Positions 12,263-36,580 are shown, counted from the first letter of the stretch. The stretch is DNA of 64,000 nucleotides from an uncultured Gammaproteobacteria bacterium (GCA_964544585.1 CAZJBV010000002.1:67468-131467), one strand, 5' to 3'. Numbers and translations are program-made. Notes: generated by a model from the sequence alone, not told the origin.

Positions 12263-13083
12263 AAAAACCACTTGAATTATTTAAACTCGATGGCAATATA
12301 GCACTGGTTACTGGAGGCCTAGGAAATCTAGGGCCTTATTGGATAAAAGCGTTAAAAGGGGGTGGAGCAAAAGTAGTTTCGATTGATCTGCCGAACATAA
12401 AATCCTCTGACTATTACTTTTCCGTCGATATCACCGATATAAATCGTCTTCATAAATTACATACACAGATATCAAAAGATTTGGGAAGCGTTACAATACT
12501 TGTAAACAATGCCGGCATTGACGCACCACCCTCAAAGCACCTCGAAGGTGGCCGGCTTGCCCTGAGCGCAGTCGAAGGGGACTCCTTCGAGGTGAAGGAA
12601 ACAGGCTATGACTCCCCCGAGGTGAACAGGCTATATAAAAATATGTGGGATGTAAATGTCCAAGGTCTGGTAAATTGCATAGAAGTTTTTTCACCAGATA
12701 TGAAAAAGCAGAAGAAAGGAAGCATTATAAATATTGGCTCTCTCTATGGAGAAAAGTCACCAGACGAAAGATTATATAGCCATCTCGGTTTTGACAAGCC
12801 CTGGGCCTATGGAGCCACAAAAGCAGCGGTCCTTCAAGTTACTCGTCACTACTCCACCCGCCTTGCCAAATATAATATCAGAGTAAATACCTTATCACCG
12901 GGAGGAGTATTTAATAATCAAGATAAAGAATTTGTAAAAAAATATTCACAACACGTTCCCTTAGGCCGAATGGCAGAAAAAGTTACCGACCTTGCCGGCC
13001 CGCTTCTCTTTCTTGCCTCCGATGCATCAATCTATGTTACAGGCATAAATCTTCAAGTTAATGGCGGCTATACAGCTTGGTAA
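12259..13083 (+). CDS. SDR family oxidoreductase carrying an in-frame GC-rich palindromic element insertion
   Basis: 'ALVTGGLGNLG', 'NNAGI' and 'YGATKAAV' are SDR motifs. About 20 extra residues ('PPSKHLEGGRLALSAVEGDSFEV...') between NNAG and the catalytic region are encoded by the GC-rich repeat. Confidence 0.8.
   Translation: MKKPLELFKLDGNIALVTGGLGNLGPYWIKALKGGGAKVVSIDLPNIKSSDYYFSVDITDINRLHKLHTQISKDLGSVTILVNNAGIDAPPSKHLEGGRLALSAVEGDSFEVKETGYDSPEVNRLYKNMWDVNVQGLVNCIEVFSPDMKKQKKGSIINIGSLYGEKSPDERLYSHLGFDKPWAYGATKAAVLQVTRHYSTRLAKYNIRVNTLSPGGVFNNQDKEFVKKYSQHVPLGRMAEKVTDLAGPLLFLASDASIYVTGINLQVNGGYTAW
12538..12624. repeat. GC-rich nested palindromic element C1: arms CACCTCGAAGG/CCTTCGAGGTG plus an extra partial arm, in-frame inside the SDR gene
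   Basis: cacctcgaaggtggccgg...gggactccttcgaggtg at 12538-12594 and actcccccgaggtg at 12611-12624. A local GC spike in an AT-rich gene. Confidence 0.8.
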
Positions 13084-13087
13084 AAAT

Positions 13088-14518
13088 ATGAAATATCCCA
13101 CAAATATTTATCACTGGATTGGCAACAGAGAAACTGGAAATAAAGATACTAAATTAATTGCAAAAATAAATCCAAGAAACGGGCAAAAAATAGCCAAAAT
13201 AATTCAAGGAACCAATCAAGAGGTAAAATATGCAATTACCAAATCTTTAAATGCTTTTTCATCTTGGAGTCAAACTTCAATAATATCTCGTGCCAACATT
13301 CTCCGCGAGACCGCCATTTTGGTGCAAAAAAGAAAGGATGAAATAGCCCAAATAGTTCATCTGGAAACGGGAAAATCTTTAAAAGATGCAACAAACGAAG
13401 TAGAAGGAGCAATAGAATTAGGCTTTTTTATGGCAGGGGAGGGGAGAAGATATTATGGGAAAACAACCACATCGGCACAAGAAAATAGGTGGGCATACAC
13501 CATAAGACAACCAGTTGGAGTTTGCGCTTTAATAGTTCCTTTTAATACTCCTATTGCCAATGTAACCTGGAAAGCATTTCCAGCCCTTCTTTGCGGAAAT
13601 ACGTGTGTGGCAAAAGCTGCCTCAGATACGCCTTACACTCCCATTTGGTTTGGGAAAATTCTAAAAGAGGCAGGACTGCCTGACGGAATCTACAACGTCA
13701 TCCAAGGAAGCGGAGAGGAAATAGGAGGTGCTCTGCTTGATGACAGAAGAATAAATCTTATTAGCTTCACCGGATCGGTCGAAACCGGAAAATATATTCA
13801 AAAAAAGGTTGCAAATCGTTTGGTCAAAGTAAGTCTTGAATTGGGAGGAAAAAATCCTCTTATTGTCTGCGACGACGCCAATCTAGAAGAAGCTGCCAAC
13901 CAGGCAATACTTTCAGCATTTTCCAATGCCGGACAGCGCTGTTCTTCCGGAAGTAGAATTATAGTTTTCGAAAAAATATACGAACAATTCAAAAAGCTTT
14001 TTATAGAAAAAACAAAAACTTACAAAGTAGGACCAGTGATAAATGAAAAGCAATTAAACAAAATGATTTCAATCATGGACAGAGTTGTTAAGTCTGGAAA
14101 AGTTAAATTAATTTTAGGAGGAAATAGAAAAGTCGATAGACCAGGTTACTTTCTTGCTCCTACTATTCTCGAATCAAAACAAAAAAGCGAGTATGATGAC
14201 GAAGAATTATTTGGCCCAATCACTTCTCTCTATAAAGTAAAAAATTTAGATCAAGCTTTAGAATTAACAAACAACTCTCCCTATGGTTTAACCGCAGCAA
14301 TTCATACCGCAAGTATTCATAAAGAAGAGTATTTTATAAATCACGCCAGAGTAGGAGTAGTATCAGTAAACGGCCCGACCTATGGCAGCGAACCCCATTT
14401 GCCTTTCGGAGGCTTGAGAAATTCGGGTAATGGTCATCGAGAACCAGGCACAGAAGCCCTAGACTTCTATTCTGAATGGAAAACCGTTTATATAAAGCAC
14501 AGCCCCGAGAATATTTAG
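13088..14518 (+). CDS. aldehyde dehydrogenase family protein
   Basis: 'ELGGKNP' and 'GQRCSSGSR' are ALDH catalytic motifs. The alternative start at 13061 overlaps the upstream gene. Confidence 0.85.
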   Translation: MKYPTNIYHWIGNRETGNKDTKLIAKINPRNGQKIAKIIQGTNQEVKYAITKSLNAFSSWSQTSIISRANILRETAILVQKRKDEIAQIVHLETGKSLKDATNEVEGAIELGFFMAGEGRRYYGKTTTSAQENRWAYTIRQPVGVCALIVPFNTPIANVTWKAFPALLCGNTCVAKAASDTPYTPIWFGKILKEAGLPDGIYNVIQGSGEEIGGALLDDRRINLISFTGSVETGKYIQKKVANRLVKVSLELGGKNPLIVCDDANLEEAANQAILSAFSNAGQRCSSGSRIIVFEKIYEQFKKLFIEKTKTYKVGPVINEKQLNKMISIMDRVVKSGKVKLILGGNRKVDRPGYFLAPTILESKQKSEYDDEELFGPITSLYKVKNLDQALELTNNSPYGLTAAIHTASIHKEEYFINHARVGVVSVNGPTYGSEPHLPFGGLRNSGNGHREPGTEALDFYSEWKTVYIKHSPENI

Positions 14519-15295
14519 ATGATGAAAATTCCATCAATTATTGCTCTGATACCCGCACGCTCCGGATCTAAAAGAATTAAAGATAAAAATATAAATGAAC
14601 TTGCTGGCCATCCACTAATCGCCTACACCATAGCGGGAGCGTTAGAATCAGGAATATTTAAAAAAATAATAGTCTCAACCGATAGCCCACAATACGCCAA
14701 AATTGCAGAATATTATGGCGCAGAAGTTCCCTTTTTGCGTCCTTCCGAGTTTGCCAAGTCGACTTCACCTGACATCGAATGGCTCCATTACACTCTGAAA
14801 AAACTCCGGAATGATGAAAATGGCACAATTGAAGACTGTTTTGCCATTTTAAGACCCACAAGTCCGGGAAGGTTATCCGAAACCATAAAACGGGCTTGGA
14901 AGCTATTTCTCGATGATGGCAATGCAGATAGTCTTCGCGCAGTTGAAATTTGCTCTCAACATCCGGCTAAAATGTGGATTGTTGATAAAAAGATTAATCG
15001 CATCCATCCCGTAATGGTCAATCCTGACAAAAAAGATATACCATGGCACAGCCAGCAATTTCCCTCCCTTCCCAAAGTCTATGCTCAAAATGCCAGTCTG
15101 GAAATTGCCTGGACTCGCCTTCCTCTTGAAAAATATTCTCTATCAGGAGATAAAATCATGCCCTTCTTTACTAATGAATCAGAAGGATTTGATCTAAATT
15201 CTGAATGGGACTGGATAATTGCTGAAAATATGCTAAAGAGAGGCAGATTGATTCTGCCAAAAGTAAAGAAACCTCCGTATGAAAAATATTCTTAA
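14519..15295 (+). CDS. neuA: acylneuraminate (nonulosonate) cytidylyltransferase, CMP-sugar synthetase
   Basis: N-terminal 'IIALIPARSGSKRIKDKN' is the CTP_transf_3 signature. Confidence 0.8.
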   Translation: MMKIPSIIALIPARSGSKRIKDKNINELAGHPLIAYTIAGALESGIFKKIIVSTDSPQYAKIAEYYGAEVPFLRPSEFAKSTSPDIEWLHYTLKKLRNDENGTIEDCFAILRPTSPGRLSETIKRAWKLFLDDGNADSLRAVEICSQHPAKMWIVDKKINRIHPVMVNPDKKDIPWHSQQFPSLPKVYAQNASLEIAWTRLPLEKYSLSGDKIMPFFTNESEGFDLNSEWDWIIAENMLKRGRLILPKVKKPPYEKYS

Positions 15296-17195
15296 TCAAA
15301 CAGGGTATATAGGAGCTAATACATTCCAGCTACTTGAAAAAAAGAAGTATCTTGACACAATTGCCGATTGTATACGCTACAATACGCTTTTATCTGTAGC
15401 TCGCGCCGGCACAGGACACTTGGGAGCTTCTCTTTCAATAATAGAAACGCTAACTGAAATTTATTTTCGTTCTTTTAACTTTGATCTACAAAATTTAAAT
15501 AATCCCCACCGCGACATCTTTATCCTCTCCAAAGGTCATGCAGCTCCATCTCTCTATACAACTTTAGCCGCCAAAGGCTATTTTCCCATAGAATCGCTTG
15601 ACTCTCTTCGAAGACTCAATGGTCTTCAAGGTCATTGCGATATTGTAACGTTGGGTATTGAAGCAAATACCGGCTCTCTGGCCATGGGTCTATCCAAAGC
15701 AGTAGGCTACTCAATCTTAAAAAAAAGAATGGGATTAAAAGGTAATGTCCTGTGTTTAGTCGGAGATGGAGAATTACAAGAAGGCCAATGCTGGGAAGCC
15801 TTTCTTTCGGCAATAAGTTTCTCTTGTGACAATTTATTCGTTGTCATAGACGATAACCAAGTCCAGACAGATCAATACACCAATAATATTGTTAAGTACA
15901 ATGACATAATAAGTACGCTTTCCTCAATAGGTTTTGCAGTAGTTGAAAAAAACGGTCGGAAAAGCGATGAAATCTACAAAGGTTTTAACTCATTAAAAAA
16001 AGCCAAAATACCAAAACTCCTCTATCTTCATACAGTCAAAGGCCAGGGGGTTTCATATATGGAACACACGAATATATTGAATAAAAAAAATGCTAAATAT
16101 ATCTGGCACAACAAACCACCAACAAAAGAATTATTAAGAATTGCTCTCGAAGAAATTTTAAAAAGGATTAAAAATATTCTTAAATCAGAAAATCTTTCAT
16201 TCAATATAAACCCATCTCTACAGTCTATACCGAGGGAACCGGGAGAAACAGGTATCGAAGGAAAAAACATCATTGCTGGTTTTGCAGAAGGACTAAAAGA
16301 AATAGCCTCAAAAAATAAAAGAATCGTCGTCCTCGACGGAGATCTGGAAGAAGATTGTGGTTTCATCCCATTCCATAAATCATACCCCAAACGATTTTTT
16401 GAAATGGGGATTATGGAACAACACATTGTTTCAGCAGCATCAGCCTTTTCTCGACTTGGGTATATTCCTGTAATCTCCACATATGCCGCATTTCTCACCG
16501 CCAGAGCCAACGAGCAAATCTATAATTTAGTAACAGAAAGTGGAAAAGCCTTAATAGTCGGTAATATGGCAGGTATACTTCCGGCCACTCCAGGAAAGTC
16601 TCATCAAGCATTTCGGGATATTGCCTGCATGAAAAATATACCCGGAATTACCATGTACCAGCCAGTCTCGGCTCAAGATGTAAAAAACATCCTCAATAGA
16701 TATTTCCAAGGTTTATTAGGCAAAATTGTCTATATTCGTTTATCAATGGCCGCATCCCGCATTGAGTTGGCAACGTCACCCATTTCTTTAAAAAAAGGAG
16801 TTTCACATATACTCAAAAAAGGCAAAGATGCTCTCGCGATCGGGATAGGGCCTGTAGTTTTGGGAGAATGTCTAAAGTCAGCCGAAAATTTAAAAGAAAA
16901 TGGCATAAATGTCGAAATCTGGAATCATCCCTGGCTTATTGATTTTGACAAAAACCAATTGCGTCAAGCTTCAAAAAGGAAAATTCCTTTAATTATCATC
17001 GAAGATCACTATATAAAAGGAGGATTTGGTGAAAGCCTTTTGTCATTTTTAAGATTAAATAATATTTCCTTTAACAAAATAAAGCATATTGGGATAAAGA
17101 ATATTCCTCAGACAGGCTTTAGACAGGAGGCGCTCGAAACACAAGGGTTAGATAGCAACTCATTAATCTCCGGTATAAAAAGCTTGCTTCAATGA
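15279..17195 (+). CDS. transketolase (fused N-terminal TPP-binding and C-terminal pyrimidine-binding domains)
   Basis: 'GHLGASLS', 'SKGHAAPSLY' and 'GDGELQEGQCWEA' in the N-terminal half, plus a transketolase C-terminal half. Confidence 0.8.
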   Translation: MKNILNQTGYIGANTFQLLEKKKYLDTIADCIRYNTLLSVARAGTGHLGASLSIIETLTEIYFRSFNFDLQNLNNPHRDIFILSKGHAAPSLYTTLAAKGYFPIESLDSLRRLNGLQGHCDIVTLGIEANTGSLAMGLSKAVGYSILKKRMGLKGNVLCLVGDGELQEGQCWEAFLSAISFSCDNLFVVIDDNQVQTDQYTNNIVKYNDIISTLSSIGFAVVEKNGRKSDEIYKGFNSLKKAKIPKLLYLHTVKGQGVSYMEHTNILNKKNAKYIWHNKPPTKELLRIALEEILKRIKNILKSENLSFNINPSLQSIPREPGETGIEGKNIIAGFAEGLKEIASKNKRIVVLDGDLEEDCGFIPFHKSYPKRFFEMGIMEQHIVSAASAFSRLGYIPVISTYAAFLTARANEQIYNLVTESGKALIVGNMAGILPATPGKSHQAFRDIACMKNIPGITMYQPVSAQDVKNILNRYFQGLLGKIVYIRLSMAASRIELATSPISLKKGVSHILKKGKDALAIGIGPVVLGECLKSAENLKENGINVEIWNHPWLIDFDKNQLRQASKRKIPLIIIEDHYIKGGFGESLLSFLRLNNISFNKIKHIGIKNIPQTGFRQEALETQGLDSNSLISGIKSLLQ

Positions 17196-18088
17196 CTAAA
17201 AGTTTCGAGCTCTTAAGATTACTTCTGATCGGAATGAGCCTTAAACTCTATGCCGGCCTCAAATCCATTCCAGCAAATAATATTGATACATTTACTCGTA
17301 TATCAGCACTTCGGTCCTATAAAAATTTAGGTATTCAGCGAACTTTTGAATTGTTCATTCACCCGATTTCAACCATCAGGTATTTCGAATTTGACTTTGT
17401 CCAAAAAAATATAGAATTATCAAAGGTTCATAATATTTTGGATATATCGTCTCCTAGAATGTTTGGCCTTTATGTAGCCAAAAAAAATCCAAATATTAAA
17501 TATTTAATGATAAATCCTGATAAACATGATTTAACTGAAACTAATCAATTTAAAAATTCATTAAATCTGCATAATTTAACTCTTGATAGTTTAGATGCCC
17601 TAAAGCTTCCTTTTAAAAGTAATTCATTTGATATAGTTTTAAGCATCAGTGTCATCGAACACATTGCAGGAGTCGGTGACATGAAAGTAATAAAACAAAT
17701 ATGGCGGGTATTAAAGCCTGGCGGAAAATTAATAATTACTACTCATGTGGCAAAAAAAGAAAGATTGGAATACAGGGATTCAGACACCTATAATTTACAG
17801 GGAAAGAAAAAGAAATATTTTTTTCAAAGAATTTATAGTGGTGATTCATTAAAAAAGAGAATAATCAACGCAATTGGAATTAAGCCTAAATTAATCGAAA
17901 TCATTGGAGAAACTAAAAAGGGTTGGTTCGATTCATATATAACACGCTGGATTGAATACGATATAAAAGAAACAATTTTCGACCCATGGTACATGCTCAC
18001 CAAATTCAGAAAATATAATTCTATAGAGGAGTTACCTGGAATAGGTATAATCGCCGTAGTTTTTATTAAACCCCATCAACATTTATGA
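17192..18088 (+). CDS. class I SAM-dependent methyltransferase
   Basis: 'ILDISSP' followed by 'FDIVLSISVIEHI' and 'LKPGGKLII' is the Methyltransf_11 pattern. Confidence 0.75.
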   Translation: MTKSFELLRLLLIGMSLKLYAGLKSIPANNIDTFTRISALRSYKNLGIQRTFELFIHPISTIRYFEFDFVQKNIELSKVHNILDISSPRMFGLYVAKKNPNIKYLMINPDKHDLTETNQFKNSLNLHNLTLDSLDALKLPFKSNSFDIVLSISVIEHIAGVGDMKVIKQIWRVLKPGGKLIITTHVAKKERLEYRDSDTYNLQGKKKKYFFQRIYSGDSLKKRIINAIGIKPKLIEIIGETKKGWFDSYITRWIEYDIKETIFDPWYMLTKFRKYNSIEELPGIGIIAVVFIKPHQHL

Positions 18089-18921
18089 TATTTTCCAGAA
18101 AAATCGTTAACTCTATCAATACTTATCTCAAAAGACCAATCATCTATAAATTATTTCAGATGCAAAATGAATGGTTCAGAAAGCCTCCCTATGTATATTC
18201 TTATTATGGTTATAAAGTATATTATCCTCCACGAGACGACCTCATATACCTTTTGGCAACGGATGGCTCATACGAGCAAGGACTTTTAAACGCTTGTCAA
18301 AAACTTTTAAAAGACGATGCAGTTATTCTTGATGTAGGTGCCCATTTAGGTCTTATTACACTGGCATTATCAAGAATTCTGCCAAAAGCCCATTTCCACT
18401 GTTTCGAGCCTTCTCCACAAACCTTTAGATTACTCAAAACGACAGTCCGCAAAAATATTCTTTCAAAAAGAATATTTCTCAACAATATCGCCATCTTCAA
18501 ATCAAAAGATACTTCTACTTTCTTCGTTCATCGGGCAAAAGAGGCTTCAATAGATAGTATCAATATCCAAACAGGTCTTAAAATGATAAAAAAAATAAAA
18601 GTAAAAACCACAACTATAGACAGCTATGTTAAATCTTTAAATTTGCAAAAGGTAGATGCCATAAAAATCGATGCTGAAGGAGCTGAACTAGACATTCTCA
18701 AATCATCACTGATTACATTAAAAAAGTTTAAACCTGCCATTTTTTTCGAGACATGGCCGGAGGCGGCTGGCCTTTTTGGAATAAGTATGAAAGATATATA
18801 CAATTTTTTTTCTGGCAATGGTTATGCAGTATTTACCCAAAAAATAAAGCGCTTAAATCTGGATAATTTTTTAGACGCCACAAGAAGCGAAAGTAATTTC
18901 ATCTCTCTACCAAAATCATAA
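18085..18921 (+). CDS. FkbM family methyltransferase (tandem paralog 1)
   Basis: 'ILDVGAHLGLITL...HCFEPSP' and 'IKIDAEGAELDIL'. Confidence 0.8.
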   Translation: MIFSRKIVNSINTYLKRPIIYKLFQMQNEWFRKPPYVYSYYGYKVYYPPRDDLIYLLATDGSYEQGLLNACQKLLKDDAVILDVGAHLGLITLALSRILPKAHFHCFEPSPQTFRLLKTTVRKNILSKRIFLNNIAIFKSKDTSTFFVHRAKEASIDSINIQTGLKMIKKIKVKTTTIDSYVKSLNLQKVDAIKIDAEGAELDILKSSLITLKKFKPAIFFETWPEAAGLFGISMKDIYNFFSGNGYAVFTQKIKRLNLDNFLDATRSESNFISLPKS

Positions 18922-19769
18922 TGCCCAAATATTATTCCGACCTTTTTATAAAATCAGGCAAATTTATTTCCGGGAAAATAAAAGCCCCATTTTCGCTTTT
19001 GTTTCATCGCTTCAGAAATGAAATATTCAGAAAATCTCCCTACCATATGAAATATTTTGGTTTCAACTTGTATTATAAAAAGGGTGACGGAGGAATAAAT
19101 CATCTCGCCCGCGGATACTCATACGAACCAGACGTCATAGAGGCAATTATAAAAAATATACGCCCAAACTCTACCATAATCGATGTAGGAAGTAATATCG
19201 GCTTAATTACTCTTTCCGTGTTGCATTATTATCCCACCGCACACTTTCATTGTTTCGAACCATCTGGGTACTCTAATCAAATCTTTCAACAAACAATCTT
19301 GAAAAATAATTTAAACTCTAATATAAGATTGATAAAAAAAGGCCTCTACCACAAATCGGGAATCATTCCATTCTATACACACGGTATTCCTAACGCCCTA
19401 GGCGATGGTATTAAAGATACTAAAAGGGCTGGAATTTCAAAAAAGGCTCCAATCGAAGTAACTACTCTCGATAATTATGTTAAAAAATCTAAAATCCAAA
19501 AGATAGATCTCATCAAAATTGACGTCGAGGGTGCCGAGTTATTTGTCCTAAAAGGAGGAAGAAAATCAATTTTAAAATATCGTCCTCTTATCCTTTTTGA
19601 GGCAAACCCAGTAAACCTTCAAGCATATAATCTGATCCCGGGTGACATCTATCACTTCTTTTCAAAAATTGACTATAAAATCATTAGCCTTTCCGGAGAA
19701 ATATTAGATTTAGAAAAATTTGTAACTATGACCCAAAAAGTGGATAATTACTTGGCTTCTCCCATATGA
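18921..19769 (+). CDS. FkbM family methyltransferase (tandem paralog 2)
   Basis: 'IIDVGSNIGLITL...HCFEPSG' and 'IKIDVEGAELFVL'; paralogous to 18085..18921. Confidence 0.8.
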   Translation: MPKYYSDLFIKSGKFISGKIKAPFSLLFHRFRNEIFRKSPYHMKYFGFNLYYKKGDGGINHLARGYSYEPDVIEAIIKNIRPNSTIIDVGSNIGLITLSVLHYYPTAHFHCFEPSGYSNQIFQQTILKNNLNSNIRLIKKGLYHKSGIIPFYTHGIPNALGDGIKDTKRAGISKKAPIEVTTLDNYVKKSKIQKIDLIKIDVEGAELFVLKGGRKSILKYRPLILFEANPVNLQAYNLIPGDIYHFFSKIDYKIISLSGEILDLEKFVTMTQKVDNYLASPI

Positions 19770-21073
19770 AGGATATAGATATTCTTTGGTTCATCGAACA
19801 TATTGCCCGTGAGTTGGATGTAGCAGTCTTAGCAAGCTTAATTATCAACAAAAAATACGGCCTGACAGTAAAAATAGAACAGATATCAAATCTTAAGAAA
19901 ATAGAAAAGCTTTACAATCCCAAAATTATTCTCCTTCCTTATTGTTATGTTGCCACCGATGGTTATATAGAAAGAATAATTTCGATATGGCCAAAGAGTG
20001 TCTTTATCAATCTTGCTTGGGAGCAAATTTTTTATAATGCCAACAAAATATATAAATTGCCCCGCGACTATTTTGCTCGAAATTGCGTTTATCACCATGC
20101 CTGGAGCAAAACCAGAAAAAAAATACTTAAAAAGCTCGATATTCCAGACAAAAATATTTTTCTAAATGGCCAACCCGCCTATAAATTATATGATGAGCCA
20201 TACAAAAAACTTTTTATCAGTCGTAAAAATCTGGCAGAAAGATATCAATTAGATACTAACAAAACATGGATTTTCTTTCCCGAAAACTACAGTTGGTATT
20301 TCTATTCAAAAGAAACAATCCAAAAGATCATCCAGGATGGTCAAGGAGTAAAAACCATCAGCACTCTAAAAAATTATTGCAAAGACAGCTTTACAATTGC
20401 ACTTGAATGGTTAAACCAGATCGCAAAAAGATATGAAGATACTGTTGAAATCATCCTTCGTCCGCGTCCCTCATTTAGCCAAGAATATTTTTTATGGCAA
20501 GTACAGAAATTAAAACCGTCTCTATCCAAAAATATAAGAGTTATAAAAGATTTTTCCATCAGAGAATGGATTTTAGCAAGCGATATCGTAATTTCATCAT
20601 TTTCAACTTCACTTATCGAAGCCGCCATAGCTAAAAAAACTCTTTATATACTTGAACCTAATCCCATGCCAAATGAATTAATTGCAGAGTGGTATAAATA
20701 TGTCGAGAAAATAAAAAGTCTGAATGGATTATTCTCTATCCTGCCGGCCAGCCTGCCGGTAGGCATGGCAGGCAGGAATAATTACTTAAAGCTTCGTACC
20801 TGGGCACGGTCTAATTTTTATGTAAAAGATGATCCCATCCAAGGACTTGCGGATATTCTTGCAAAAATACCAGAAAAACAACTTCCAGAATTAAAAAATA
20901 CAAAAAGTCTATTCCGTCAAGCACAGAAAAAGGCATTCTCAATATTAAGTAAATTAAAAAAAGCAACAACAACCACGGATGCATATTTTAAATTAGATGA
21001 TGATAAAATCTTTGAGTCAGAATTAAAAGATAAAATGATTCGTTATAAAAACTTTATTGATAAATATCTATGA
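19766..21073 (+). CDS. hypothetical surface-carbohydrate biosynthesis protein (GT-B-like; candidate nonulosonate/ulosonate transferase)
   Basis: 435 aa. The 'IVISSFSTSLIEAAIAKK' region resembles the C-terminal domain of TagF/KpsC-type GT-B transferases. Carries an in-frame GC-rich palindrome at 20741-20776. Confidence 0.5.
   Translation: MKDIDILWFIEHIARELDVAVLASLIINKKYGLTVKIEQISNLKKIEKLYNPKIILLPYCYVATDGYIERIISIWPKSVFINLAWEQIFYNANKIYKLPRDYFARNCVYHHAWSKTRKKILKKLDIPDKNIFLNGQPAYKLYDEPYKKLFISRKNLAERYQLDTNKTWIFFPENYSWYFYSKETIQKIIQDGQGVKTISTLKNYCKDSFTIALEWLNQIAKRYEDTVEIILRPRPSFSQEYFLWQVQKLKPSLSKNIRVIKDFSIREWILASDIVISSFSTSLIEAAIAKKTLYILEPNPMPNELIAEWYKYVEKIKSLNGLFSILPASLPVGMAGRNNYLKLRTWARSNFYVKDDPIQGLADILAKIPEKQLPELKNTKSLFRQAQKKAFSILSKLKKATTTTDAYFKLDDDKIFESELKDKMIRYKNFIDKYL
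20741..20776. repeat. GC-rich palindromic element A1 (core CCTGCCGG..CAGGCAGG), in-frame in hypothetical CDS
   Basis: ctgccggccagcctgccggtaggcatggcaggcagg; encodes 'PASLPVGMAGRN'. Confidence 0.75.
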
Positions 21074-21915
21074 TTATAATGCGCATAACAGGAGGATTAG
21101 GCAATCAACTTTTTCAGTATGCCACAGGAAGGACCCTTTCGGAAAAGTTTAATACTACCTTAAAGCTTGATATCACTGAAGTATTGACCAAAAAATATCG
21201 AAAATTCTTATTAGATCGCTTTCGCATAAAAGCTCAAACCGCTTCTCCAGAAGTAGTAAAAAAATTCTGGAGATTCTCAGTTCACAATCTTTTCCGATCT
21301 CCCGAATATAAAGTATTCAAAGAAAAACACTTTCATTACGACCACGAATTTGAAAAAATAAAAGACAATACTTACATCGTAGGTTTTTTTCAGAGCGATA
21401 AATACTTCAACAATATCAAGCAGTTAATTAAAAGAGAATTCTCTCTCAAAAATGGGTTATCGACAGAAAGCAAAAAAATTGCTGCAAAAATAAAGTCAGT
21501 AAATGCCGTCTCTATAAATGTTAGAAGAGGAGATTATGTCAGTGATCCTATTATTCATAAGCGCCACGGATTTATAGGAGTAGACTATTTTTTGAAAGCC
21601 ATTAACTATATTAAAAAAAATACTTCCAATCCTCACTTTTTTTTATTTTCAGATGACATACAGTGGGTAAAAGAAAATCTTCATATCCCGCATCAATCGA
21701 CATACGTCGACCTAAACTTCCCAGATCATGTCGAAGAAAATCTTATTCTCGGTAGCCTTTGTAATCATAATATCATTACCAACAGCACCTTTAGTTGGTG
21801 GGTGGGCTGGTTAAATGCAAATAAAAAAAAGATCGTCGTCGCCCCTAAAAAATGGTTCAAAGATTTGGATGTTTCGACAAAAGATTTATTTCCAAAATCT
21901 TGGATTCTTCTTTAA
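21070..21915 (+). CDS. alpha-1,2-fucosyltransferase (GT11)
   Basis: 'ITGGLGNQLFQYA', 'NVRRGDY' and 'ITNSTFSWW' are the three GT11 signatures (FutC-like). Confidence 0.85.
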   Translation: MIIMRITGGLGNQLFQYATGRTLSEKFNTTLKLDITEVLTKKYRKFLLDRFRIKAQTASPEVVKKFWRFSVHNLFRSPEYKVFKEKHFHYDHEFEKIKDNTYIVGFFQSDKYFNNIKQLIKREFSLKNGLSTESKKIAAKIKSVNAVSINVRRGDYVSDPIIHKRHGFIGVDYFLKAINYIKKNTSNPHFFLFSDDIQWVKENLHIPHQSTYVDLNFPDHVEENLILGSLCNHNIITNSTFSWWVGWLNANKKKIVVAPKKWFKDLDVSTKDLFPKSWILL

Positions 21916-21917
21916 AA

Positions 21918-22943
21918 ATGGAAAATAATATTTTAGTCCGCATCATTAAAAATTATGACTGGCCAAATATCTTCCGTCAAACTCCCAAAGGTAAAGGGGT
22001 ATGGAGCGGAATAAAATTTACCGAAGATGAAATTTCGGATCCCGATTTTATTGTTGTCCTCAACTGGTCCTCCCAAAAAATATCCACCACAATTAACAAA
22101 AATAATGTCTGGCTTATTCTCCAGGAACCGCCTAACGAATTTTTTAAAATGATGCACAAAGGAAATAATGTATATTCACGAATATTTACCCAAGATATAA
22201 CATTAACAGGAAAAAGATTTGTTCATAGTCAGCCGGCAATTCCCTGGTTTATAAATATGACTTATGATGAGTTGAAAAAATGCAAAATTCCCAAGAAAAA
22301 TAAAACTGTTTCCCTTATTACCAGTCTTAAAAGTAATTTTTTAGGACACAAAAAAAGACTTGTATTTGCCCGGATGTTAAAAAGACAACTCGACGTCGAT
22401 ATTATCGCAACGAGTGATTACTACATCCGCCAAAATCCCCAAATTACACACAAAGAAATAGAAGCAAAATTATTAAATAAAGAATACACCAAAGTACTCA
22501 AGGATAAGTGGGATGCACTCGCTTCCTATAAATATAGTATCGTCATCGAAAATTATAAGGGTCCTCATTATTTCAGCGAAAAGCTAATTGATTGCTTTTT
22601 GACCTGGACTTTCCCCATCTACTTCGGCTGTATCAATTTAGGTCAGTATTTTCCCAAAGAGTCATTCATATCAATAGATATAGATAAACCAGATTCAATA
22701 AATAAAATAAAAGAAGTTTTAGGAAAAGACATCTGGAGTAGAAAGCTGAGAGCGTTAAACAAAGCCCGAACCCTTGTTTTAGAAAAATATCAATTTTTTC
22801 CTTATATGGCAAAATATGTAAAAGAGTGGCAAAAAATGGCAAAAACAAGAAAAAAAGAAAATATAATTATTCCTAAACAGGACTCTCTACTCTCCCAAGC
22901 TAAGATGAGTCTATTTTCTAAATTGAGAACGATAATAAAATGA
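21918..22943 (+). CDS. alpha-1,3/4-fucosyltransferase (GT10)
   Basis: 'YKYSIVIENYKGPHYFSEKLIDCFLTWTFPIYFG' matches the GT10 C-terminal motif. The ATG at 21918 avoids overlap with the upstream gene. Confidence 0.8.
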   Translation: MENNILVRIIKNYDWPNIFRQTPKGKGVWSGIKFTEDEISDPDFIVVLNWSSQKISTTINKNNVWLILQEPPNEFFKMMHKGNNVYSRIFTQDITLTGKRFVHSQPAIPWFINMTYDELKKCKIPKKNKTVSLITSLKSNFLGHKKRLVFARMLKRQLDVDIIATSDYYIRQNPQITHKEIEAKLLNKEYTKVLKDKWDALASYKYSIVIENYKGPHYFSEKLIDCFLTWTFPIYFGCINLGQYFPKESFISIDIDKPDSINKIKEVLGKDIWSRKLRALNKARTLVLEKYQFFPYMAKYVKEWQKMAKTRKKENIIIPKQDSLLSQAKMSLFSKLRTIIK

Positions 22944-23896
22944 CTAACCCCATCTTCTCCGTAGTTGTTTGCACTCTTAATCGAAAAGAGGCACTTGAAA
23001 AAAACATCGAAAGTCTATTAGACCAAACATTTGATTATCAAAAGTTTGAAATAATAGTTGTCGATGATGGATCTAACGATGGTACAGCCAATTATCTCAA
23101 AACCAAAGCACGAAAGACAAAAGAACCAAAAATAAGAGTCATAATGCATAAAAACAAAGGATTAGCTCATTCACGAAATATTGCCGTCAAAAAAGCTAGA
23201 GGGGAATTCATGGCTTTCATCGACGATGATGCCGTAGCCAGTAGAAACTGGCTCAAAAATGCCTACGGATGTATTAGTTCCGTAAATCCTAAACCTCAAG
23301 GAGTAACAGGTCCAGTAAAGTCCTATTATAAAGTTAAAAAACCTATCTGGTTTAAAGATGAATATGTCGATGACATTAAAGGAATAAAGGAGAGGTTCCT
23401 TAAAACTGGCGAAGCTTTTTCTGGACCAAATATGATCCTAAATAAAGAGATAATAAAAAAATACGGCGGCTTTGATGAATTAGTTGATATGAAAGGAGCC
23501 TTGTTAATGCTAGGCGAGGAGACAAAACTTTTTGAACGTATCTGGAAAAATAATATCGACAAAAAAATACTCTATTACTCTCCCCAAATTATTGTCAATC
23601 ACTTAATTCATCCCTTCAAGCTAACAATTTCATATACTCTAAAACGATGGTTTGCCACAGGTCAATCATATTACTTAAGACATAAAAGAAGCGGACTTCT
23701 AGAAAAAACGGGCATGACTTTTAGAATAGTTGGTTTTACAATTATATCGACGCTGCTGGCTGTTATACTCATTCCTTTTTATAGAAGATATCAAAATTGG
23801 CTGATAGAACGAATCGGACCAATTCTTTTCTGCCTAGGCTTCATCACTTCACTTGCACGCATTTCCTATAACATGAAACAATATAATCGGATATGA
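22940..23896 (+). CDS. GT2 glycosyltransferase with C-terminal TM anchor
   Basis: 'FSVVVCTLNR' and 'IIVVDDGSNDGT' are GT2 motifs. Confidence 0.8.
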   Translation: MTNPIFSVVVCTLNRKEALEKNIESLLDQTFDYQKFEIIVVDDGSNDGTANYLKTKARKTKEPKIRVIMHKNKGLAHSRNIAVKKARGEFMAFIDDDAVASRNWLKNAYGCISSVNPKPQGVTGPVKSYYKVKKPIWFKDEYVDDIKGIKERFLKTGEAFSGPNMILNKEIIKKYGGFDELVDMKGALLMLGEETKLFERIWKNNIDKKILYYSPQIIVNHLIHPFKLTISYTLKRWFATGQSYYLRHKRSGLLEKTGMTFRIVGFTIISTLLAVILIPFYRRYQNWLIERIGPILFCLGFITSLARISYNMKQYNRI

Positions 23897-25440
23897 AAAA
23901 ACTAGTTTTTCTACTGCTCTTTATTACATTTTTAAAAGAAATTGTTTGGATAGCGTTCGTACCTCTCTGGCATTTTCCCGACGAGCAGTCTCACTTTGGA
24001 CAAATTGCTTTCTTGGCCGAAAAAGGAAGAATGCCTTATGATGAAGAGCTAAGTCTCACTGAAGAAATAAGAAAATCAGAAGAATTATTGAGTACAGAAA
24101 GAGATGAATTAGGTATTAATAAATTTACTTATCATCATGAATACAGAATCGAGTACACCCAAAAACTGACAGGAAAATATGAATCTCAAATTAATAACCT
24201 GAAAAATAATCAAAAAGCTCGAAAAATGGTAAAAATAGAAGCTAGTCGATATCATCCTTTTTATTATGCAGTTTTGGGGAGTATCTATAGATTATTTTAT
24301 TACAATACTCTTATTAATAGAGTATTTATCAGTCGGATTTTCCAATCCCTCCTTTCGGTTTTGGTTGTTTTAATAGCTTTTAATGTAGGCAAATATATAT
24401 TCAGAAACCAATTACAATCTCTAACTCTCGCCATTCTTGTTTCCTTTCACCCTATGTTTTCTTTTGTCTCTGCCGGAGTCAACAGTGACAATTTAGGCAC
24501 ATTATTATTTAGCGCCTTCATTCTAATTACTCTTATCATTTTGCATAAAAAGATTAATTTCAAAAATATTTTTATTCTCGGCACAATATCATTATTAACA
24601 TTTATCATCAAACCCCAATATTTCATCGTTTTTCCCTTATCTGTCATGCTTTTTGTTTTCAAAATTTTAATAAGTCTGGAAAATATTCAAATAAAAATTA
24701 TAAAATCAGTTAGTCTAATTGCTCTTTCCTTTATCCTCTTATCCTTTATCCTGCGATTAGGTTTAGGTTCAGGAGTTCTAGTATCAAAATTTATTACTAA
24801 TTTTTCTCCTATTGAACTTACAGCTTATTTTCGCTCGTATGTCATACCCCATCTATATAGAGAAGTATTACCCTGGTATTGGGGAATATACAATTGGCTG
24901 GGTGTGACATACCCCAGAATCGTCCATCGGACTGTAAATTGGATCGGTTTAATTTCGATGGTCGGCCTTGGTCTCATCTTTATAAAAAATAAATTCCGAT
25001 TGACACAGTTTCCCTTAAAAGAAATTGTCTGGCTGATTATCATTAATATCTTTTTTGTCACCGGAATATATTCATATGACTTTCTTGAATGGAGTCAGAA
25101 AAATATTCATCTCGGAGTCCAAGGTAGATATTTTTTTCCAGCCATAATCACCCAAATGAGTCTCATCCTTACCGGATTATTGATACTTATTCCCAAGACA
25201 TGGATTAAATTTAAAAATTATTTCACACATGGAATCGGAATTTTGATGATCGTTTTCAATTTTTATGCTCTATATATTGTGGCGGAGGCTTATTATGATC
25301 TTTCATCATTTGACAGATTTATCATCCAGGCAAGCCAGTATAAACCATGGTTTTTTAAAAGCTGGTATCTACTAAGTATATTTGGAATATACACTTCAAG
25401 CCTTGGAATTTTTCTCTTCAAATATTTGAAGAATAAATGA
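23893..25440 (+). CDS. GT-C fold-like membrane protein (ArnT/PMT-like first-loop DE motif)
   Basis: Multi-TM ORF with 'PDEQSHFGQIAFL' after TM1. Confidence 0.55.
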   Translation: MKKLVFLLLFITFLKEIVWIAFVPLWHFPDEQSHFGQIAFLAEKGRMPYDEELSLTEEIRKSEELLSTERDELGINKFTYHHEYRIEYTQKLTGKYESQINNLKNNQKARKMVKIEASRYHPFYYAVLGSIYRLFYYNTLINRVFISRIFQSLLSVLVVLIAFNVGKYIFRNQLQSLTLAILVSFHPMFSFVSAGVNSDNLGTLLFSAFILITLIILHKKINFKNIFILGTISLLTFIIKPQYFIVFPLSVMLFVFKILISLENIQIKIIKSVSLIALSFILLSFILRLGLGSGVLVSKFITNFSPIELTAYFRSYVIPHLYREVLPWYWGIYNWLGVTYPRIVHRTVNWIGLISMVGLGLIFIKNKFRLTQFPLKEIVWLIIINIFFVTGIYSYDFLEWSQKNIHLGVQGRYFFPAIITQMSLILTGLLILIPKTWIKFKNYFTHGIGILMIVFNFYALYIVAEAYYDLSSFDRFIIQASQYKPWFFKSWYLLSIFGIYTSSLGIFLFKYLKNK

Positions 25441-26894
25441 TACTTTTTTTTATACTCGCCATCGCCTTTATTTTCCGCTTTTATAATGTCCAGGATTGGC
25501 TCTTTTTTGGCATGGACCAGGAGTATGAAGCATTTCTGGTAAAAAACATTCTTTCTGGTATTCACTTTCCCGCAATCGGCGTCAATGCCGGCGATACCGG
25601 ACTTTATCTCGGTCCACTCTTCATCTATTTTGCCGTGATCCCCTACGCCCTTTTTCAAGGCAGTCCCGTTGGAGGAGCCGTAGTCGCCTCCACTCTTGGA
25701 ATTCTAACTACATATTTCATTTATCTTCTCGGTAAACTCTGGTGGGATAAAAGTATAGGATTCATAGCTTCATTTTTATACGCGTCCTCATTTTTGGCAA
25801 CATTATACGACCGACAGTTTTGGAATCCCACTCCTATTCCTCTTGCAACAGTCATTCTTCTCTATTCTCTGACAAAGGTACTGAAGGATCAGCCAAAATA
25901 TTTGATCCTAAGTTCCGTCATTCTTGGCTTTGCCCTCCAAAGTCATTTACAGGCAGTCATCCTCTTAATAATCGCCATAGGTTTCATCGTCTATTTTCAT
26001 AAAAATATAAAAAAATCATTAATTCTTATTTTTTTTATCATTCTCATACTCTTTCAAGCGCCTTTGATCTTTTTCGATCTTCGCCACGAATTTACCAACA
26101 CCAAAGCTTTGGCAAAACTTATCATTCCATCGGAAAGAAAACAAAAGATAATCACCACAAATATTGGAGAAAGATTTAGGCTTTTTTTTAATTCACTGGG
26201 AAGATCTATTTATGTAAAAGGGCCTATCGATTTATATCTCGAAAATGGTCAGTGCGAAGAACTCATTCCCGAAAGAGGTAAAACCAATATCATCGCCATT
26301 GCCATAAGTGTAGCGATGATCTTAATATTTATTTACCGAACCCGTGCAAATCTACTGATCACATATATTTTAATAGCAACCTTCATAGGTCTTTTTATAT
26401 ACAATCACAGAATTTATGAATATTATTTTCTTTATCTATTGCCTCCATTATATTTAATCTATGCCTTTGTCCTCGTTAGTTTATTCAAAAAGAAAAAAAT
26501 TGTCTTTCTTTTTCTACTGTCTCTTTTCTTTTTATTAAACGCCAATGTATTTTTCACCGCCGGGAAAACATATTCTTTTCAAAATAAACTTCAAGCCATA
26601 AAATTTGCTTCCATTTATATAGAAGATGAAAACTACAATCTAAAAGCTTTTGGTGAATGTGGAAAGTACCAAGGATACAGATATCTTTTCGAGTATTTCG
26701 GGAAAATTCCCAACGCATCATATATGGATCCATATTTTTCATGGATTTACGGAGAGCCAAAAAAGAATAAAGTTGCCAAAGAGGTGATAGTAGCTTTAGA
26801 TGGGCGCGATTATCGCCCTTTTAAAGAAAAGGTGATCGCTGAGTCTCAATTTGGTAAGATACTAATATACATTACGAACAATGAAGAGAATTAA
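25437..26894 (+). CDS. GT-C glycosyltransferase (ArnT/PMT-like)
   Basis: Multi-TM ORF. 'DQEYEAFLVKNIL' is a first-loop acidic motif. Paralogous to 36581..38143(-). Confidence 0.65.
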   Translation: MILFFILAIAFIFRFYNVQDWLFFGMDQEYEAFLVKNILSGIHFPAIGVNAGDTGLYLGPLFIYFAVIPYALFQGSPVGGAVVASTLGILTTYFIYLLGKLWWDKSIGFIASFLYASSFLATLYDRQFWNPTPIPLATVILLYSLTKVLKDQPKYLILSSVILGFALQSHLQAVILLIIAIGFIVYFHKNIKKSLILIFFIILILFQAPLIFFDLRHEFTNTKALAKLIIPSERKQKIITTNIGERFRLFFNSLGRSIYVKGPIDLYLENGQCEELIPERGKTNIIAIAISVAMILIFIYRTRANLLITYILIATFIGLFIYNHRIYEYYFLYLLPPLYLIYAFVLVSLFKKKKIVFLFLLSLFFLLNANVFFTAGKTYSFQNKLQAIKFASIYIEDENYNLKAFGECGKYQGYRYLFEYFGKIPNASYMDPYFSWIYGEPKKNKVAKEVIVALDGRDYRPFKEKVIAESQFGKILIYITNNEEN

Positions 26895-28146
26895 GATACT
26901 TATTTTTTCCCCTACAGCCCTTTCTACTTACTATGTTTTTTCCGGAAACATCATCTCTGCCATATTGGCATTTCTATATACTGTCCTCCTTGTTCGCAAC
27001 CTCTCCCTCGCAGACATTGGCTATTTTTCTGCCCTCTGGTCATTTTTGCTTCTTATTGCCGATGTAGCCGAACTTGGCATTGGCACCTCTCTTTCAGCCT
27101 TCGTCCCCATAGCCAAAAGTATAAATGATAGGTTCAATGTAATTAAAACAGCCATGATAATCCAATTTGTTGTAGCTCTATTATTTTCGCTGCCAATATT
27201 TATATTTTCGGATATCATTGCTTCCTTTCTCTTTCATTCGGAGAATTTAAACATACTGGTAAAAGTTACCAGCGTAGGCATTTTTATAGCCGTCATTAAT
27301 TACTTTTATCAATTGGCACTTACATCAGAGGAACGCTTTCTCAAAGTCGCTCTTTTTTCTATTTCCGGAAGCCTGTTTCGCTTAGGGTCTGGTCTAATAC
27401 TCGTCCTGATTTCTCTATTTACTTTAAAAAATGCAGTCATGACACAAGTATTCTCATTAGGCTTATTATTTCTATTAGGAATATTATTGCACCGAAATTC
27501 CATTCTAAAGGGGAAACTTTTACCACTATTTATTAAGAATTTTCTTGCATTTTCTTCATTCCTGGGGATCGCCCGGGGAATGACAGCTTTAGCGTCCCGA
27601 CTTGATGTTCTCATGATTGTGGCAATACGTGGCCCGACAGAAGCAGGCATCTACGCCATTGCCGCAAGAGTAATCTCTCTCTATCCGCTTCTTTCCGGTA
27701 GTTTCAGCTCGGTTCTCGCCCCCAAAATAGCAGCGTTTCGAGAAAAACAGGAGCTCATCAAATTTACTAAAAAAGTTATCCTGGCAACTTTGGGAATAAT
27801 TTTTACCATCATAATTCTCATAATAATAGCCAATCCATTTATGACATTACTCTTTCAGGAAAAGGGAACACAAGCATCTGGCATCTTCCAAGTACTGCTT
27901 ATAAGCATGGTATTCTTTGTCTCCTCAATTCCACCCGTCACATTAGCAGTTTACAGTCTCAAAAAGCCTCATATTTTGACCATCAATAGTTTAATCCAGG
28001 TGACCATAGTATTTTTAGGAAATCTATTCCTCATTCCTCATTTTGGCTATTTTGGCGCCGCCTACTCACTCATCGCGGCTTATGCCATTTCATTAGTTTT
28101 AACCACAGTCTTAACTATTTATTATTTAAATAAAAGATATGGCTAA
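26881..28146 (+). CDS. wzx: oligosaccharide flippase (Wzx, MOP superfamily)
   Basis: 421 aa with about 12 TM segments and Wzx-like topology. Confidence 0.75.
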   Translation: MKRIKILIFSPTALSTYYVFSGNIISAILAFLYTVLLVRNLSLADIGYFSALWSFLLLIADVAELGIGTSLSAFVPIAKSINDRFNVIKTAMIIQFVVALLFSLPIFIFSDIIASFLFHSENLNILVKVTSVGIFIAVINYFYQLALTSEERFLKVALFSISGSLFRLGSGLILVLISLFTLKNAVMTQVFSLGLLFLLGILLHRNSILKGKLLPLFIKNFLAFSSFLGIARGMTALASRLDVLMIVAIRGPTEAGIYAIAARVISLYPLLSGSFSSVLAPKIAAFREKQELIKFTKKVILATLGIIFTIIILIIIANPFMTLLFQEKGTQASGIFQVLLISMVFFVSSIPPVTLAVYSLKKPHILTINSLIQVTIVFLGNLFLIPHFGYFGAAYSLIAAYAISLVLTTVLTIYYLNKRYG

Positions 28147-36394: not shown

Positions 36395-36554
36395 TTGAAA
36401 TTTGTTTCCAAAACATTTTAACTCCGACACTAATTCCCAAAAAACCAGCAATCAAAATCTGGAAAATATAACTACCACTCCCCGGATCTATATAAGCATG
36501 AGATGGAGTCGGAAACAGGAGCGCCACTATAATCAAAATAAAAGCAAGCCTCAT
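36366..36554 (-). CDS. possible small membrane protein (62 aa)
   Basis: ORF lying in the gap between two minus-strand genes, with a hydrophobic N-terminus and a second TM segment. Overlaps the N-terminal extension of the methyltransferase ORF. Confidence 0.25.
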   Translation of the reverse strand: MRLAFILIIVALLFPTPSHAYIDPGSGSYIFQILIAGFLGISVGVKMFWKQISNAIRKIFRK

Positions 36555-36580
36555 ACAAAATAAAAGACCACTTTATAATA

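Follow-up and report, generated by a model that had tools for sequence, protein, structure and literature searches.

A GT11 and GT10-like glycosyltransferase pair, probably fucosyltransferases, in a large surface-glycan cluster of a Gottesmanbacteria-type bacterium

What do two adjacent fucosyltransferase-family genes contribute to a bacterium of very small genome? We analyzed a 64-kb stretch of DNA (CAZJBV010000002.1:67468-131467, from assembly GCA_964544585.1; hereafter, the window) in which two neighboring genes encode members of the glycosyltransferase (GT) families GT11 and GT10. We propose that the pair probably functions as soluble, cytoplasmic, inverting GT-B enzymes that use a GDP-6-deoxyhexose donor, most probably GDP-beta-L-fucose, and that carry out consecutive steps, their genes being translationally coupled, within a Wzx/Wzy-type gene cluster of ~59 kb. 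The product of the cluster is most likely a complex, lineage-conserved surface glycan, and nothing demonstrates that it is a Lewis or H epitope. The two genes are:

21070..21915, + strand: GT11-family glycosyltransferase, 281 aa; putative GDP-L-fucose-dependent fucosyltransferase (PF01531 match, motifs, and fold)
21918..22943, + strand: GT10-like glycosyltransferase, 341 aa; putative GDP-fucose-dependent transferase (partial PF00852 match, family profile, and fold)

A sequence-only reading of the window had described the pair as adjacent alpha-1,2- and alpha-1,3/4-fucosyltransferases. Both genes were found as + strand open reading frames (ORFs) filling 21070-22943, and the families and the adjacency are borne out. 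The linkage labels are not, because other members of the same two families show that family membership fixes neither linkage nor acceptor: GT11 also holds the alpha1,3-enzyme Hh0072 of Helicobacter hepaticus (PMC4202792), and human FUT10 and FUT11, members of GT10, are protein O-fucosyltransferases (PMC11949838). The GT11 motifs quoted in that reading are all present (ITGGLGNQLFQYA at residues 6-18, NVRRGDY at 150-156, and ITNSTFSWW at 236-244), as is the GT10 motif YKYSIVIENYKGPHYFSEK...PIYFG in the second protein. Mechanical ORF calling placed the second ORF at 21852-22943, beginning inside the GT11 gene. We set its start at the ATG at 21918, so that 2 nt separate the two genes, because the resulting 341-aa protein is identical to database entry P0001 and its start agrees with the N-termini of its homologues. 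The family similarities survive profile searches, with Pfam E-values of 6e-34 for the GT11 protein and 2.8e-7 for the GT10-like protein, far beyond chance; neither protein matched any model in the NCBIfam scan. Transmembrane (TM) prediction returned zero segments for both proteins, which are therefore taken as soluble, and the GT10-like protein has no signal peptide. The absence of TM segments fits cytoplasmic action on a lipid-linked intermediate, as we infer.

Judged by its sequence, the membership of the first protein in GT11 is firm. Its match to PF01531 (Glyco_transf_11) scores 118 bits against a cut-off of 23.9 and joins residues 5-279 to positions 36-295 of the 298-position profile. In an alignment with 44 homologues (41-59% identity), residues R152, R153, and G154 are invariant, and the residues of the GGLGNQxFQYA and NSxFSWW motifs (G9, G11, N12, Q13, F15, Q16, Y17, N238, S239, W243, and W244) are likewise invariant across all 45 sequences, query included; D155 is kept in 43 of the 45. 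The AlphaFold2 (AF2) model has a mean predicted local confidence (pLDDT) of 93.8. When this model was compared with the PDB by Foldseek, the top 50 matches were all GDP-fucose fucosyltransferases (FUT8, POFUT1, AtFUT1, NodZ, and POFUT2), with E-values down to 3.5e-7 and TM-scores of about 0.5. The fold is the fucosyltransferase-superfamily variant of GT-B that is common to families GT23/37/65/68. No solved structure was matched by sequence search of the PDB with either the single sequence or a profile. More than 3,400 homologues were found, which makes the GT11 protein one ordinary representative of a huge family. Among characterized enzymes it resembles Escherichia coli WbsJ (O128), WbwK (O86), and WbiQ (O127), which are soluble GT11 proteins of ~280-300 aa that carry RRxD and are encoded in Wzx/Wzy-type clusters (PMC4202792). 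In contrast to these O-antigen enzymes, the window GT11 protein has Asn in place of His in the HxRRxD motif and is paired with a GT10-like gene and a putative ulosonic-acid pathway.

The second protein is, to judge from its alignments, a divergent bacterial branch of GT10 that combines a canonical donor-binding half with a divergent acceptor-binding half. The match to PF00852 (Glyco_transf_10, the C-terminal domain) scores 30.8 bits (cut-off 23.9) and spans only positions 3-110 of the 182-position profile; a precomputed PF00852 match is recorded for 110 of the 120 homologues among the matches listed. When the single sequence was searched against the PDB with phmmer, the five best matches were GT10 fucosyltransferases, aligned over residues 188-267 and led by Helicobacter pylori HpFucT (2nzw, E=2e-7), and the remaining two, at E 0.25 and 0.8, were unrelated chains. 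A profile built from 68 family members retrieved FUT9 (2e-17), HpFucT (4e-15), AtFUT11 (4e-15), mango FUT13, and nothing else. The sequence alignments with PDB entries begin at query residue ~112-194, and no Pfam family matched residues 1-147, the N-terminal acceptor half. Within the donor half, E211/N212, Y218, and E221/K222 align on HpFucT E239/N240, Y246, and E249/K250, which contact GDP-fucose, and E211, N212, E221, and K222 are invariant in the 68 sequences. Similarly, R147, conserved in at least 90% of them, lines up with the Arg of the FUT9 S-N-x-R motif and is the putative equivalent of HpFucT R195. In the N-terminal domain, E70 is part of a QEPP motif where a beta-strand ends; it is invariant in the subfamily, making it a candidate for the catalytic base; a catalytic role has been described for HpFucT E95 (PMC4202792). 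The AF2 model has a pLDDT of 95.5, and HpFucT entries take the first seven places among its PDB fold matches (E 5e-8 to 1e-6). HpFucT is thus the best fold match, whereas by family-profile sequence human FUT9 ranks first and HpFucT second. Overall identity to HpFucT is ~13-14%, and the N-terminal acceptor domains cannot be aligned by sequence.

The GT10-like subfamily is broadly distributed. It comprises 222 representatives at 50% identity with E<=1e-30, and a scan of GTDB species genomes with the family as query found relatives in at least 578 of them, the window's own genome lying outside the species representatives. These genomes span Patescibacteria, Chloroflexota, Desulfobacterota, Planctomycetota, Cyanobacteria, Bacteroidota, Acidobacteriota, and one methanogen. 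In a neighbor-joining tree without bootstrap values, the window protein groups with its counterparts in three contigs of the type described below (L010, L011, and L014) and with unassigned metagenomic sequences, a Saccharibacteria member is placed elsewhere, and the phyla are mixed overall, which points to frequent horizontal transfer. We also note that in 21 loci outside the Candidate Phyla Radiation (CPR; see below) the GT10-like gene is directly followed by a gene for a ~267-aa GT2 protein with a Glyco_transf_7C (beta-1,4-galactosyltransferase-like) domain (for example, L056:10978-11781, L087, L079, L044, L036, and L064). This two-gene module often lies near GT9 heptosyltransferase and Wzy_C/WaaL-type genes, and a galactosyltransferase-plus-fucosyltransferase logic may operate there.

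The bacteria of the CPR, whose genomes are tiny, grow attached to other microbes. The sequence-only reading had suspected a CPR-like origin, and this was right, since the glycyl-tRNA synthetase (GlyRS) and the ManC-like protein of the window are NCBI proteins of Candidatus Gottesmanbacteria, encoded on a contig of 197,736 bp; identical genes for both are present in a same-species assembly (GCA_016186845.1, contig JACPKX010000011.1, locus L090). The same reading had called mimicry-type glycans unexpected in a CPR-like bacterium, a surprise that is softened by what we find in its relatives. A block with the order 435-aa protein, GT11, (methyltransferase), GT10-like, GT2, DUF2142, PMT_2 is shared by at least five further contigs of CPR type: the Gottesmanbacteria contig JACPKY010000002.1 (L003/L014), CAZFNL010000137.1 (L005/L011), the Patescibacteria contig JAMCUI010000009.1 (L010), L093, and L094. 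It is therefore a feature of the lineage and not a one-off acquisition. In JACPKY010000002.1 the order is short-chain dehydrogenase/reductase (SDR), aldehyde dehydrogenase, x, cytidylyltransferase, transketolase, 433-aa protein, GT11, DUF268 methyltransferase, GT10, GT2, methyltransferase, DUF2142, PMT_2, DegT, Wzx, GT2, GT4. L005/L011 and L010 carry GT11-GT2-DUF268-GT10-GT2, and L094 carries 432-aa protein-GT11-GT10-GT2-DUF2142-PMT_2-DegT. The metagenomic contig L093 shows near gene-for-gene synteny with the window over 9.5-27 kb. DUF2142 and PMT_2 occupy the same positions in L003, L005, L093, and L094; the ulosonic-acid block lies upstream of the GT11 and GT10-like genes in L003 and L093 as well; and counterparts of the 435-aa protein precede GT11 in L093 and L094. 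Identities to the JACPKY010000002.1 proteins are 49% for the 435-aa protein, 38% for GT11, 44% for GT10, and 51% for GT2. Among the 80 best genome loci of the GT10-like subfamily, a GT11 gene lies within 10 kb in three, L010, L011, and L014, all of CPR type. These three loci, together with the phylum-mixed tree, indicate that the GT11-GT10 pairing is a kept feature of one CPR lineage inside a family that moves horizontally. Our literature searches found nothing relevant on fucosyltransferases or GDP-fucose in CPR, Patescibacteria, or Gottesmanbacteria.

Several further observations concern these relatives. A DUF268 methyltransferase gene lies directly upstream of the GT10-like gene at L003:9096-10004, L005:9084-10004, and L013:6068-6979 and, between GT11 and GT10, in L010; one of these four loci is binned as Bacteroidota, and the window has no DUF268 gene, carrying FkbM-type methyltransferase genes upstream instead. 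This position hints at methylation of the sugar that the GT10-like enzyme adds or uses. The methyltransferase at 17192-18088 was considered as a displaced equivalent and rejected, since its match is weak (32% over 78 residues). CAZFNL010000137.1 is labelled "uncultured Gammaproteobacteria"; its gene order is of CPR type, it groups with the Patescibacteria locus L010 in the tree, and the label of the bin may be wrong. The same contig holds a second GT10-family gene ~9 kb upstream. Finally, the same-species contig JACPKX010000011.1 breaks inside the glycan cluster, ending at about 52.6 kb of the window, and Logan assemblies are there reduced to fragments of 2-12 kb; such breaks could reflect strain-level variation in the cluster.

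The pair is embedded in one almost one-directional glycan cluster of ~45 genes, which we delimited by annotating all large ORFs of the window with Pfam and NCBIfam. It runs from position 1 to ~58,939 and extends past the left end of the window; within it, 22 consecutive + strand genes at 9544-33508 are separated by gaps of only -26 to +4 nt. The members that bear most directly on the pair are:

11201..17195, + strand: ulosonic-acid-type pathway of NeuB-family synthase, SDR, aldehyde dehydrogenase, PseF-like cytidylyltransferase, and full-length transketolase-like protein (Pfam, NCBIfam)
17192-18088, + strand: class I S-adenosylmethionine (SAM)-methyltransferase (Pfam Methyltransf_11/31/12/25)
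18085-18921 and 18921-19769, + strand: two FkbM-family methyltransferases (Methyltransf_21; TIGR01444 at 93.7 bits, above cut-off)
19766..21073, + strand: 435-aa soluble protein of the "surface carbohydrate biosynthesis protein" type (weak TIGR04396 and BFO_1060-family matches)
22940..23896, + strand: GT2 glycosyltransferase, 318 aa, with two C-terminal TM helices (PF00535, 5e-31)
23893..26894, + strand: two polytopic membrane proteins of 515 aa and 485 aa (PMT_2/GT-C), with 10 and 9 TM-like segments
26881..28146, + strand: Wzx-type flippase of the MOP family (Polysacc_synt, Polysacc_synt_3; 11 TM segments; weak NCBIfam MOP flippase match)
46962..50069, + strand: 1035-aa membrane fusion of Wzy_C (polymerase/ligase-type, 8.7e-13) and PMT_2 (GT-C, 9.7e-10), with 19 TM-like segments
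55145..56227, + strand: ManC-like mannose-1-phosphate guanylyltransferase without a phosphomannose isomerase (PMI) domain, a source of GDP-mannose (NTP_transferase and ManC beta-helix)
56234..56890, + strand: small polyprenyl-phosphate glycosyl-1-phosphate transferase, the initiating enzyme (Bac_transf, 5.6e-61; TIGR03025/WbaP-type, 248 bits)

Besides the GT11/GT10 pair, the cluster holds about 20 GT2/GT4 glycosyltransferases, at least five PMT_2/GT-C-type or related polytopic membrane proteins, and four FkbM-family or class I methyltransferase genes (at 9544, 17192, 18085, and 18921). A phosphoglycosyl transferase, a Wzx protein, and a Wzy_C protein thus complete a Wzx/Wzy-type set in one locus with the glycosyltransferases. 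The methyltransferases at 17192..19769 are candidate sugar O-methyltransferases. The 435-aa protein, whose gene ends in an overlap with the GT11 start, matches TIGR04396 at 96 bits (cut-off 125) and the BFO_1060-family glycosyltransferases at 71 bits (cut-off 200), both weakly, and is a candidate ulosonic-acid transferase. On the other side of the pair, the start of the GT2 gene overlaps the GT10-like stop. The best NCBIfam matches of this GT2 protein are AglG/EpsD-type GT2s that act on lipid-linked glycans, all below cut-off, and its homologues stand at position +1 of the GT10-like gene in L014, L010, L013, L015, L019, L085, and L039. It may also be a GtrB-type synthase of polyprenyl-phosphate sugars that would supply the GT-C enzymes, although its best matches are to the oligosaccharide-elongating AglG/EpsD type. 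The 485-aa membrane protein matches PMT_2 at E=8e-11, and the equivalents of the 515-aa protein in the relatives carry DUF2142. The GDP-mannose pyrophosphorylase-like gene that the sequence-only reading had placed at 55145 proved to be just that: it has the NTP_transferase and ManC beta-helix domains, NCBI names its product mannose-1-phosphate guanylyltransferase, and its TIGR01479 score of 223 bits falls below the cut-off because the PMI half is missing.

Other parts of the cluster are less readily placed. None of the five genes at 11201-17195 reaches an NCBIfam equivalog cut-off, and no genes for pseudaminic (Pse) or legionaminic (Leg) acid precursors lie alongside; the same five-gene set is found at L003:1-6947 and L093:1059-6977. 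Its product may be a CMP-activated ulosonic (possibly ulosaric) acid that has yet to be described, and our literature search found nothing on a pathway combining NeuB, transketolase, and aldehyde dehydrogenase. At 33471-38143, three genes on the - strand break the direction of the cluster; they encode a membrane protein resembling sulfatases and phosphoethanolamine transferases, a 486-aa protein weakly matching a methyltransferase, and a 520-aa polytopic protein without a family match. A scan of 10000-29900 for promoters and terminators gave counts at chance level and was uninformative.

We propose the following scheme for this assembly line. The small phosphoglycosyl transferase (56234) would start a polyprenyl-diphosphate-linked oligosaccharide, which the GT2 and GT4 enzymes would lengthen. 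The GT11 and GT10-like enzymes would then attach two fucose-type branches or caps, the neighboring methyltransferases would O-methylate sugars, and the 435-aa protein would attach the CMP-activated ulosonic acid. Finally, Wzx would flip the glycan unit, and the Wzy_C/GT-C membrane enzymes would polymerize it or transfer it to the cell surface.

This scheme has its closest counterpart in the O-glycosylation cluster of Tannerella forsythia. That cluster is a 27-kb polycistronic unit encoding CMP-nonulosonic-acid synthesis and transfer, three methyltransferases, a fucosyltransferase, further glycosyltransferases, and Wzx, and it yields a fucosylated, O-methylated, ulosonic-acid-capped surface glycan in a general protein O-glycosylation system (PMC6120980). 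The likeness is one of system architecture and not of demonstrated homology, also for the T. forsythia fucosyltransferase GtfE; the 435-aa protein of the window does match, weakly, the family of the T. forsythia glycosyltransferase BFO_1060. T. forsythia belongs to another phylum, and the window cluster is about twice as long and holds two fucosyltransferase-family genes. By analogy, a complex surface glycan of the T. forsythia type would be a better model for this system than a Lewis/H system.

Which donor do the two enzymes use? Outside the CPR, the genomic neighborhoods of the GT10-like subfamily bear on this question. We searched the 80 genome loci with phmmer, using approximate E. coli Gmd, Fcl, and RmlA sequences as queries and accepting hits after NCBIfam confirmation of gmd. 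Within 10 kb of the GT10-like gene, gmd with an adjacent fcl or fcl-like gene occurs in four of the 80 (L020, L036, L064, and L085), and RmlA, our control, occurs in one. All four gmd genes pass TIGR01472; one of the fcl genes passes NF047922, and three fall below its cut-off. The chance expectation is ~0.4 co-occurrences by our own estimate, which takes ~20 kb per genome and ignores the general clustering of glycan genes. None of the four loci has a GT11 gene. This co-occurrence lends modest support to GDP-fucose as the donor of the GT10-like subfamily and says nothing on GDP-fucose synthesis in the present organism.

A number of observations weigh against our proposal. No gmd, fcl, or Fkp-like gene is present in the 64-kb window or in ~7 kb beyond its right end, a flank that we read from JACPKX010000011.1 and that holds a dcw cell-wall cluster, nor does any of the three occur within 10 kb of the module in any of the five CPR-type relatives; the supply of GDP-fucose is therefore unproven. 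The sole extended SDR, at the left edge of the window, is truncated there and was recovered at full length from locus L009. It gives no gmd match at E<=1e-20 and is RmlB/GalE-like, and we rejected it as a gmd candidate in spite of a broad Pfam GDP_Man_Dehyd match, its best NCBIfam models being RmlB, GalE, TviC, and LegB. In the GT11 protein, the His of HxRRxD, kept in 34 of the 45 aligned sequences, gives way to Asn in the query and in the five relatives closest to it. In the GT10-like protein, the sequence match to GT10 is confined to the donor half, E70 is no more than a candidate for the catalytic base that HpFucT has in E95, and the fold matches to HpFucT reach global TM-scores of only 0.41-0.44, with other GT-B enzymes ranking closely behind. 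Our literature searches turned up no characterized enzyme of the subfamily, and the order of steps and the acceptors in the scheme above are pure inference.

Some of these points would also fit a different donor, such as GDP-colitose, GDP-D-rhamnose, GDP-6-deoxytalose, or GDP-mannose itself. What prompts the idea is that GDP-mannose is made by the organism, whereas GDP-fucose may not be: ManC is encoded in the cluster, yet gmd and fcl are missing from the window and from the flanks of every CPR relative. Moreover, phages of Patescibacteria have been reported with gmd and rmd, the GDP-D-rhamnose route (PMC12911398), and the replacement of His by Asn in the donor motif of the GT11 protein is confined to this CPR subclade. 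Yet all solved relatives of both proteins are fucosyltransferases, the GDP-fucose-contact residues of HpFucT are kept in the GT10-like protein, and in other phyla the subfamily occurs beside gmd plus fcl and not beside rmd-only sets. In addition, gmd is likewise required for every alternative 6-deoxy donor, and the window has none. We therefore regard a different donor as unlikely, though plausible enough to be kept in view, and retain GDP-fucose. A reading modelled on H. pylori, in which the GT11 enzyme adds alpha1,2-fucose to Gal and the GT10-like enzyme adds alpha1,3/4-fucose to GlcNAc of an N-acetyllactosamine (LacNAc)-type chain, giving an H or Lewis X/Y-like epitope for partner interaction, appears to us decidedly improbable. 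H. pylori FutC (GT11) and FutA/FutB (GT10; 2NZW/2NZX/2NZY) do belong to the same two CAZy families as the window pair, the window genes are adjacent and coupled, and the 21 non-CPR loci described above set a beta4GalT-like GT2 gene directly after the GT10-like gene. In the window, however, the downstream GT2 is of a different type and has no Glyco_transf_7C domain. The Pfam scan recognized neither a GT25 match nor any LacNAc-type galactosyltransferase among the window's genes, the sole related signal being a sub-threshold Glyco_transf_7N match at 612-1325 (21.6 bits, cut-off 27); its generic GT2/GT4 enzymes could build a LacNAc-type acceptor. Sequence searches did not link the acceptor half of the GT10-like protein to canonical GT10, linkage and acceptor are unpredictable within GT10 or GT11 (PMC4202792, PMC11949838), and the conserved neighbors are ulosonic-acid, methyltransferase, and GT-C genes. 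The C-terminal heptad repeats and poly-C phase-variation tracts of the H. pylori enzymes are likewise missing from the window genes. The fut genes of H. pylori are dispersed, whereas the window pair is adjacent and co-oriented in one operon, and a CPR bacterium is of monoderm type, without lipopolysaccharide (LPS). The likely partners of a groundwater CPR bacterium would be bacteria or archaea, not mammals. The earlier equation of the pair with FutC plus FutA/B making Lewis X/Y is thus unsupported, given that family membership fixes neither linkage nor acceptor, that the acceptor half is divergent, that no LacNAc-type galactosyltransferase was recognized in the window, and that the partner genes are not a Lewis set; the mimicry idea rests on family names alone and is not supported.

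Two further explanations concern acceptor and role. The GT10-like protein might fucosylate a protein side chain directly, in the manner of FUT10/FUT11 (PMC11949838), or some other non-glycan acceptor, and its divergent N-terminal domain and the several PMT_2-type enzymes of the cluster, which glycosylate proteins or lipids, are consistent with this. It is nevertheless very improbable, given that the protein is cytoplasmic, with neither signal peptide nor TM segment, that its gene is set among those of lipid-linked-glycan glycosyltransferases with overlapping stop and start codons, and that Gram-negative loci of the subfamily, with their GT9 heptosyltransferase and Wzy_C/WaaL-type genes, are LPS-type glycan contexts. 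That the pair are recently acquired or decaying passengers without a role in the organism is harder still to credit. The phylum-mixed tree would allow it, as would a GC content of 0.33 for the two genes, slightly under the window mean of 0.36. Against this, the GC content matches that of the surrounding cluster genes, both ORFs are intact with all family-invariant residues kept, and a multi-gene block that at least five contigs of CPR type share, with proteins 38-51% identical, bespeaks long-term retention. We thus return to coupled, probably GDP-fucose-dependent steps in the assembly of a surface glycan.

What does the cluster mean for the organism? A Gottesmanbacteria genome, probably of ~1 Mb, gives ~59 kb to one surface-glycan assembly line, and the surface make-up of CPR bacteria matters for partner recognition because they live attached to other microbes. 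On a bolder view, which we hold to be speculative and rather unlikely, the CPR block of ulosonic pathway with transketolase and aldehyde dehydrogenase, 435-aa transferase, GT11, methyltransferase, GT10-like protein, GT2, DUF2142, and PMT_2 specifies an undescribed fucosylated, O-methylated, acidic-sugar-capped glycan that is the main determinant of surface identity or attachment in a Gottesmanbacteria-type episymbiont. The pair itself adds members to known families, in a phylum for which the searched literature does not discuss them, with no new mechanism indicated, and present evidence reveals neither host-glycan mimicry nor a new kind of enzyme. The cluster as a whole, with its large share of a small genome and its unusual NeuB/transketolase/aldehyde-dehydrogenase set, is more interesting than the pair. 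The bolder view, if true, would also make the GT10-like subfamily, with relatives in at least 578 species genomes, a bacterial fucosyltransferase class of novel function and distinct acceptor specificity. The two soluble enzymes of the window offer concrete, testable candidates.

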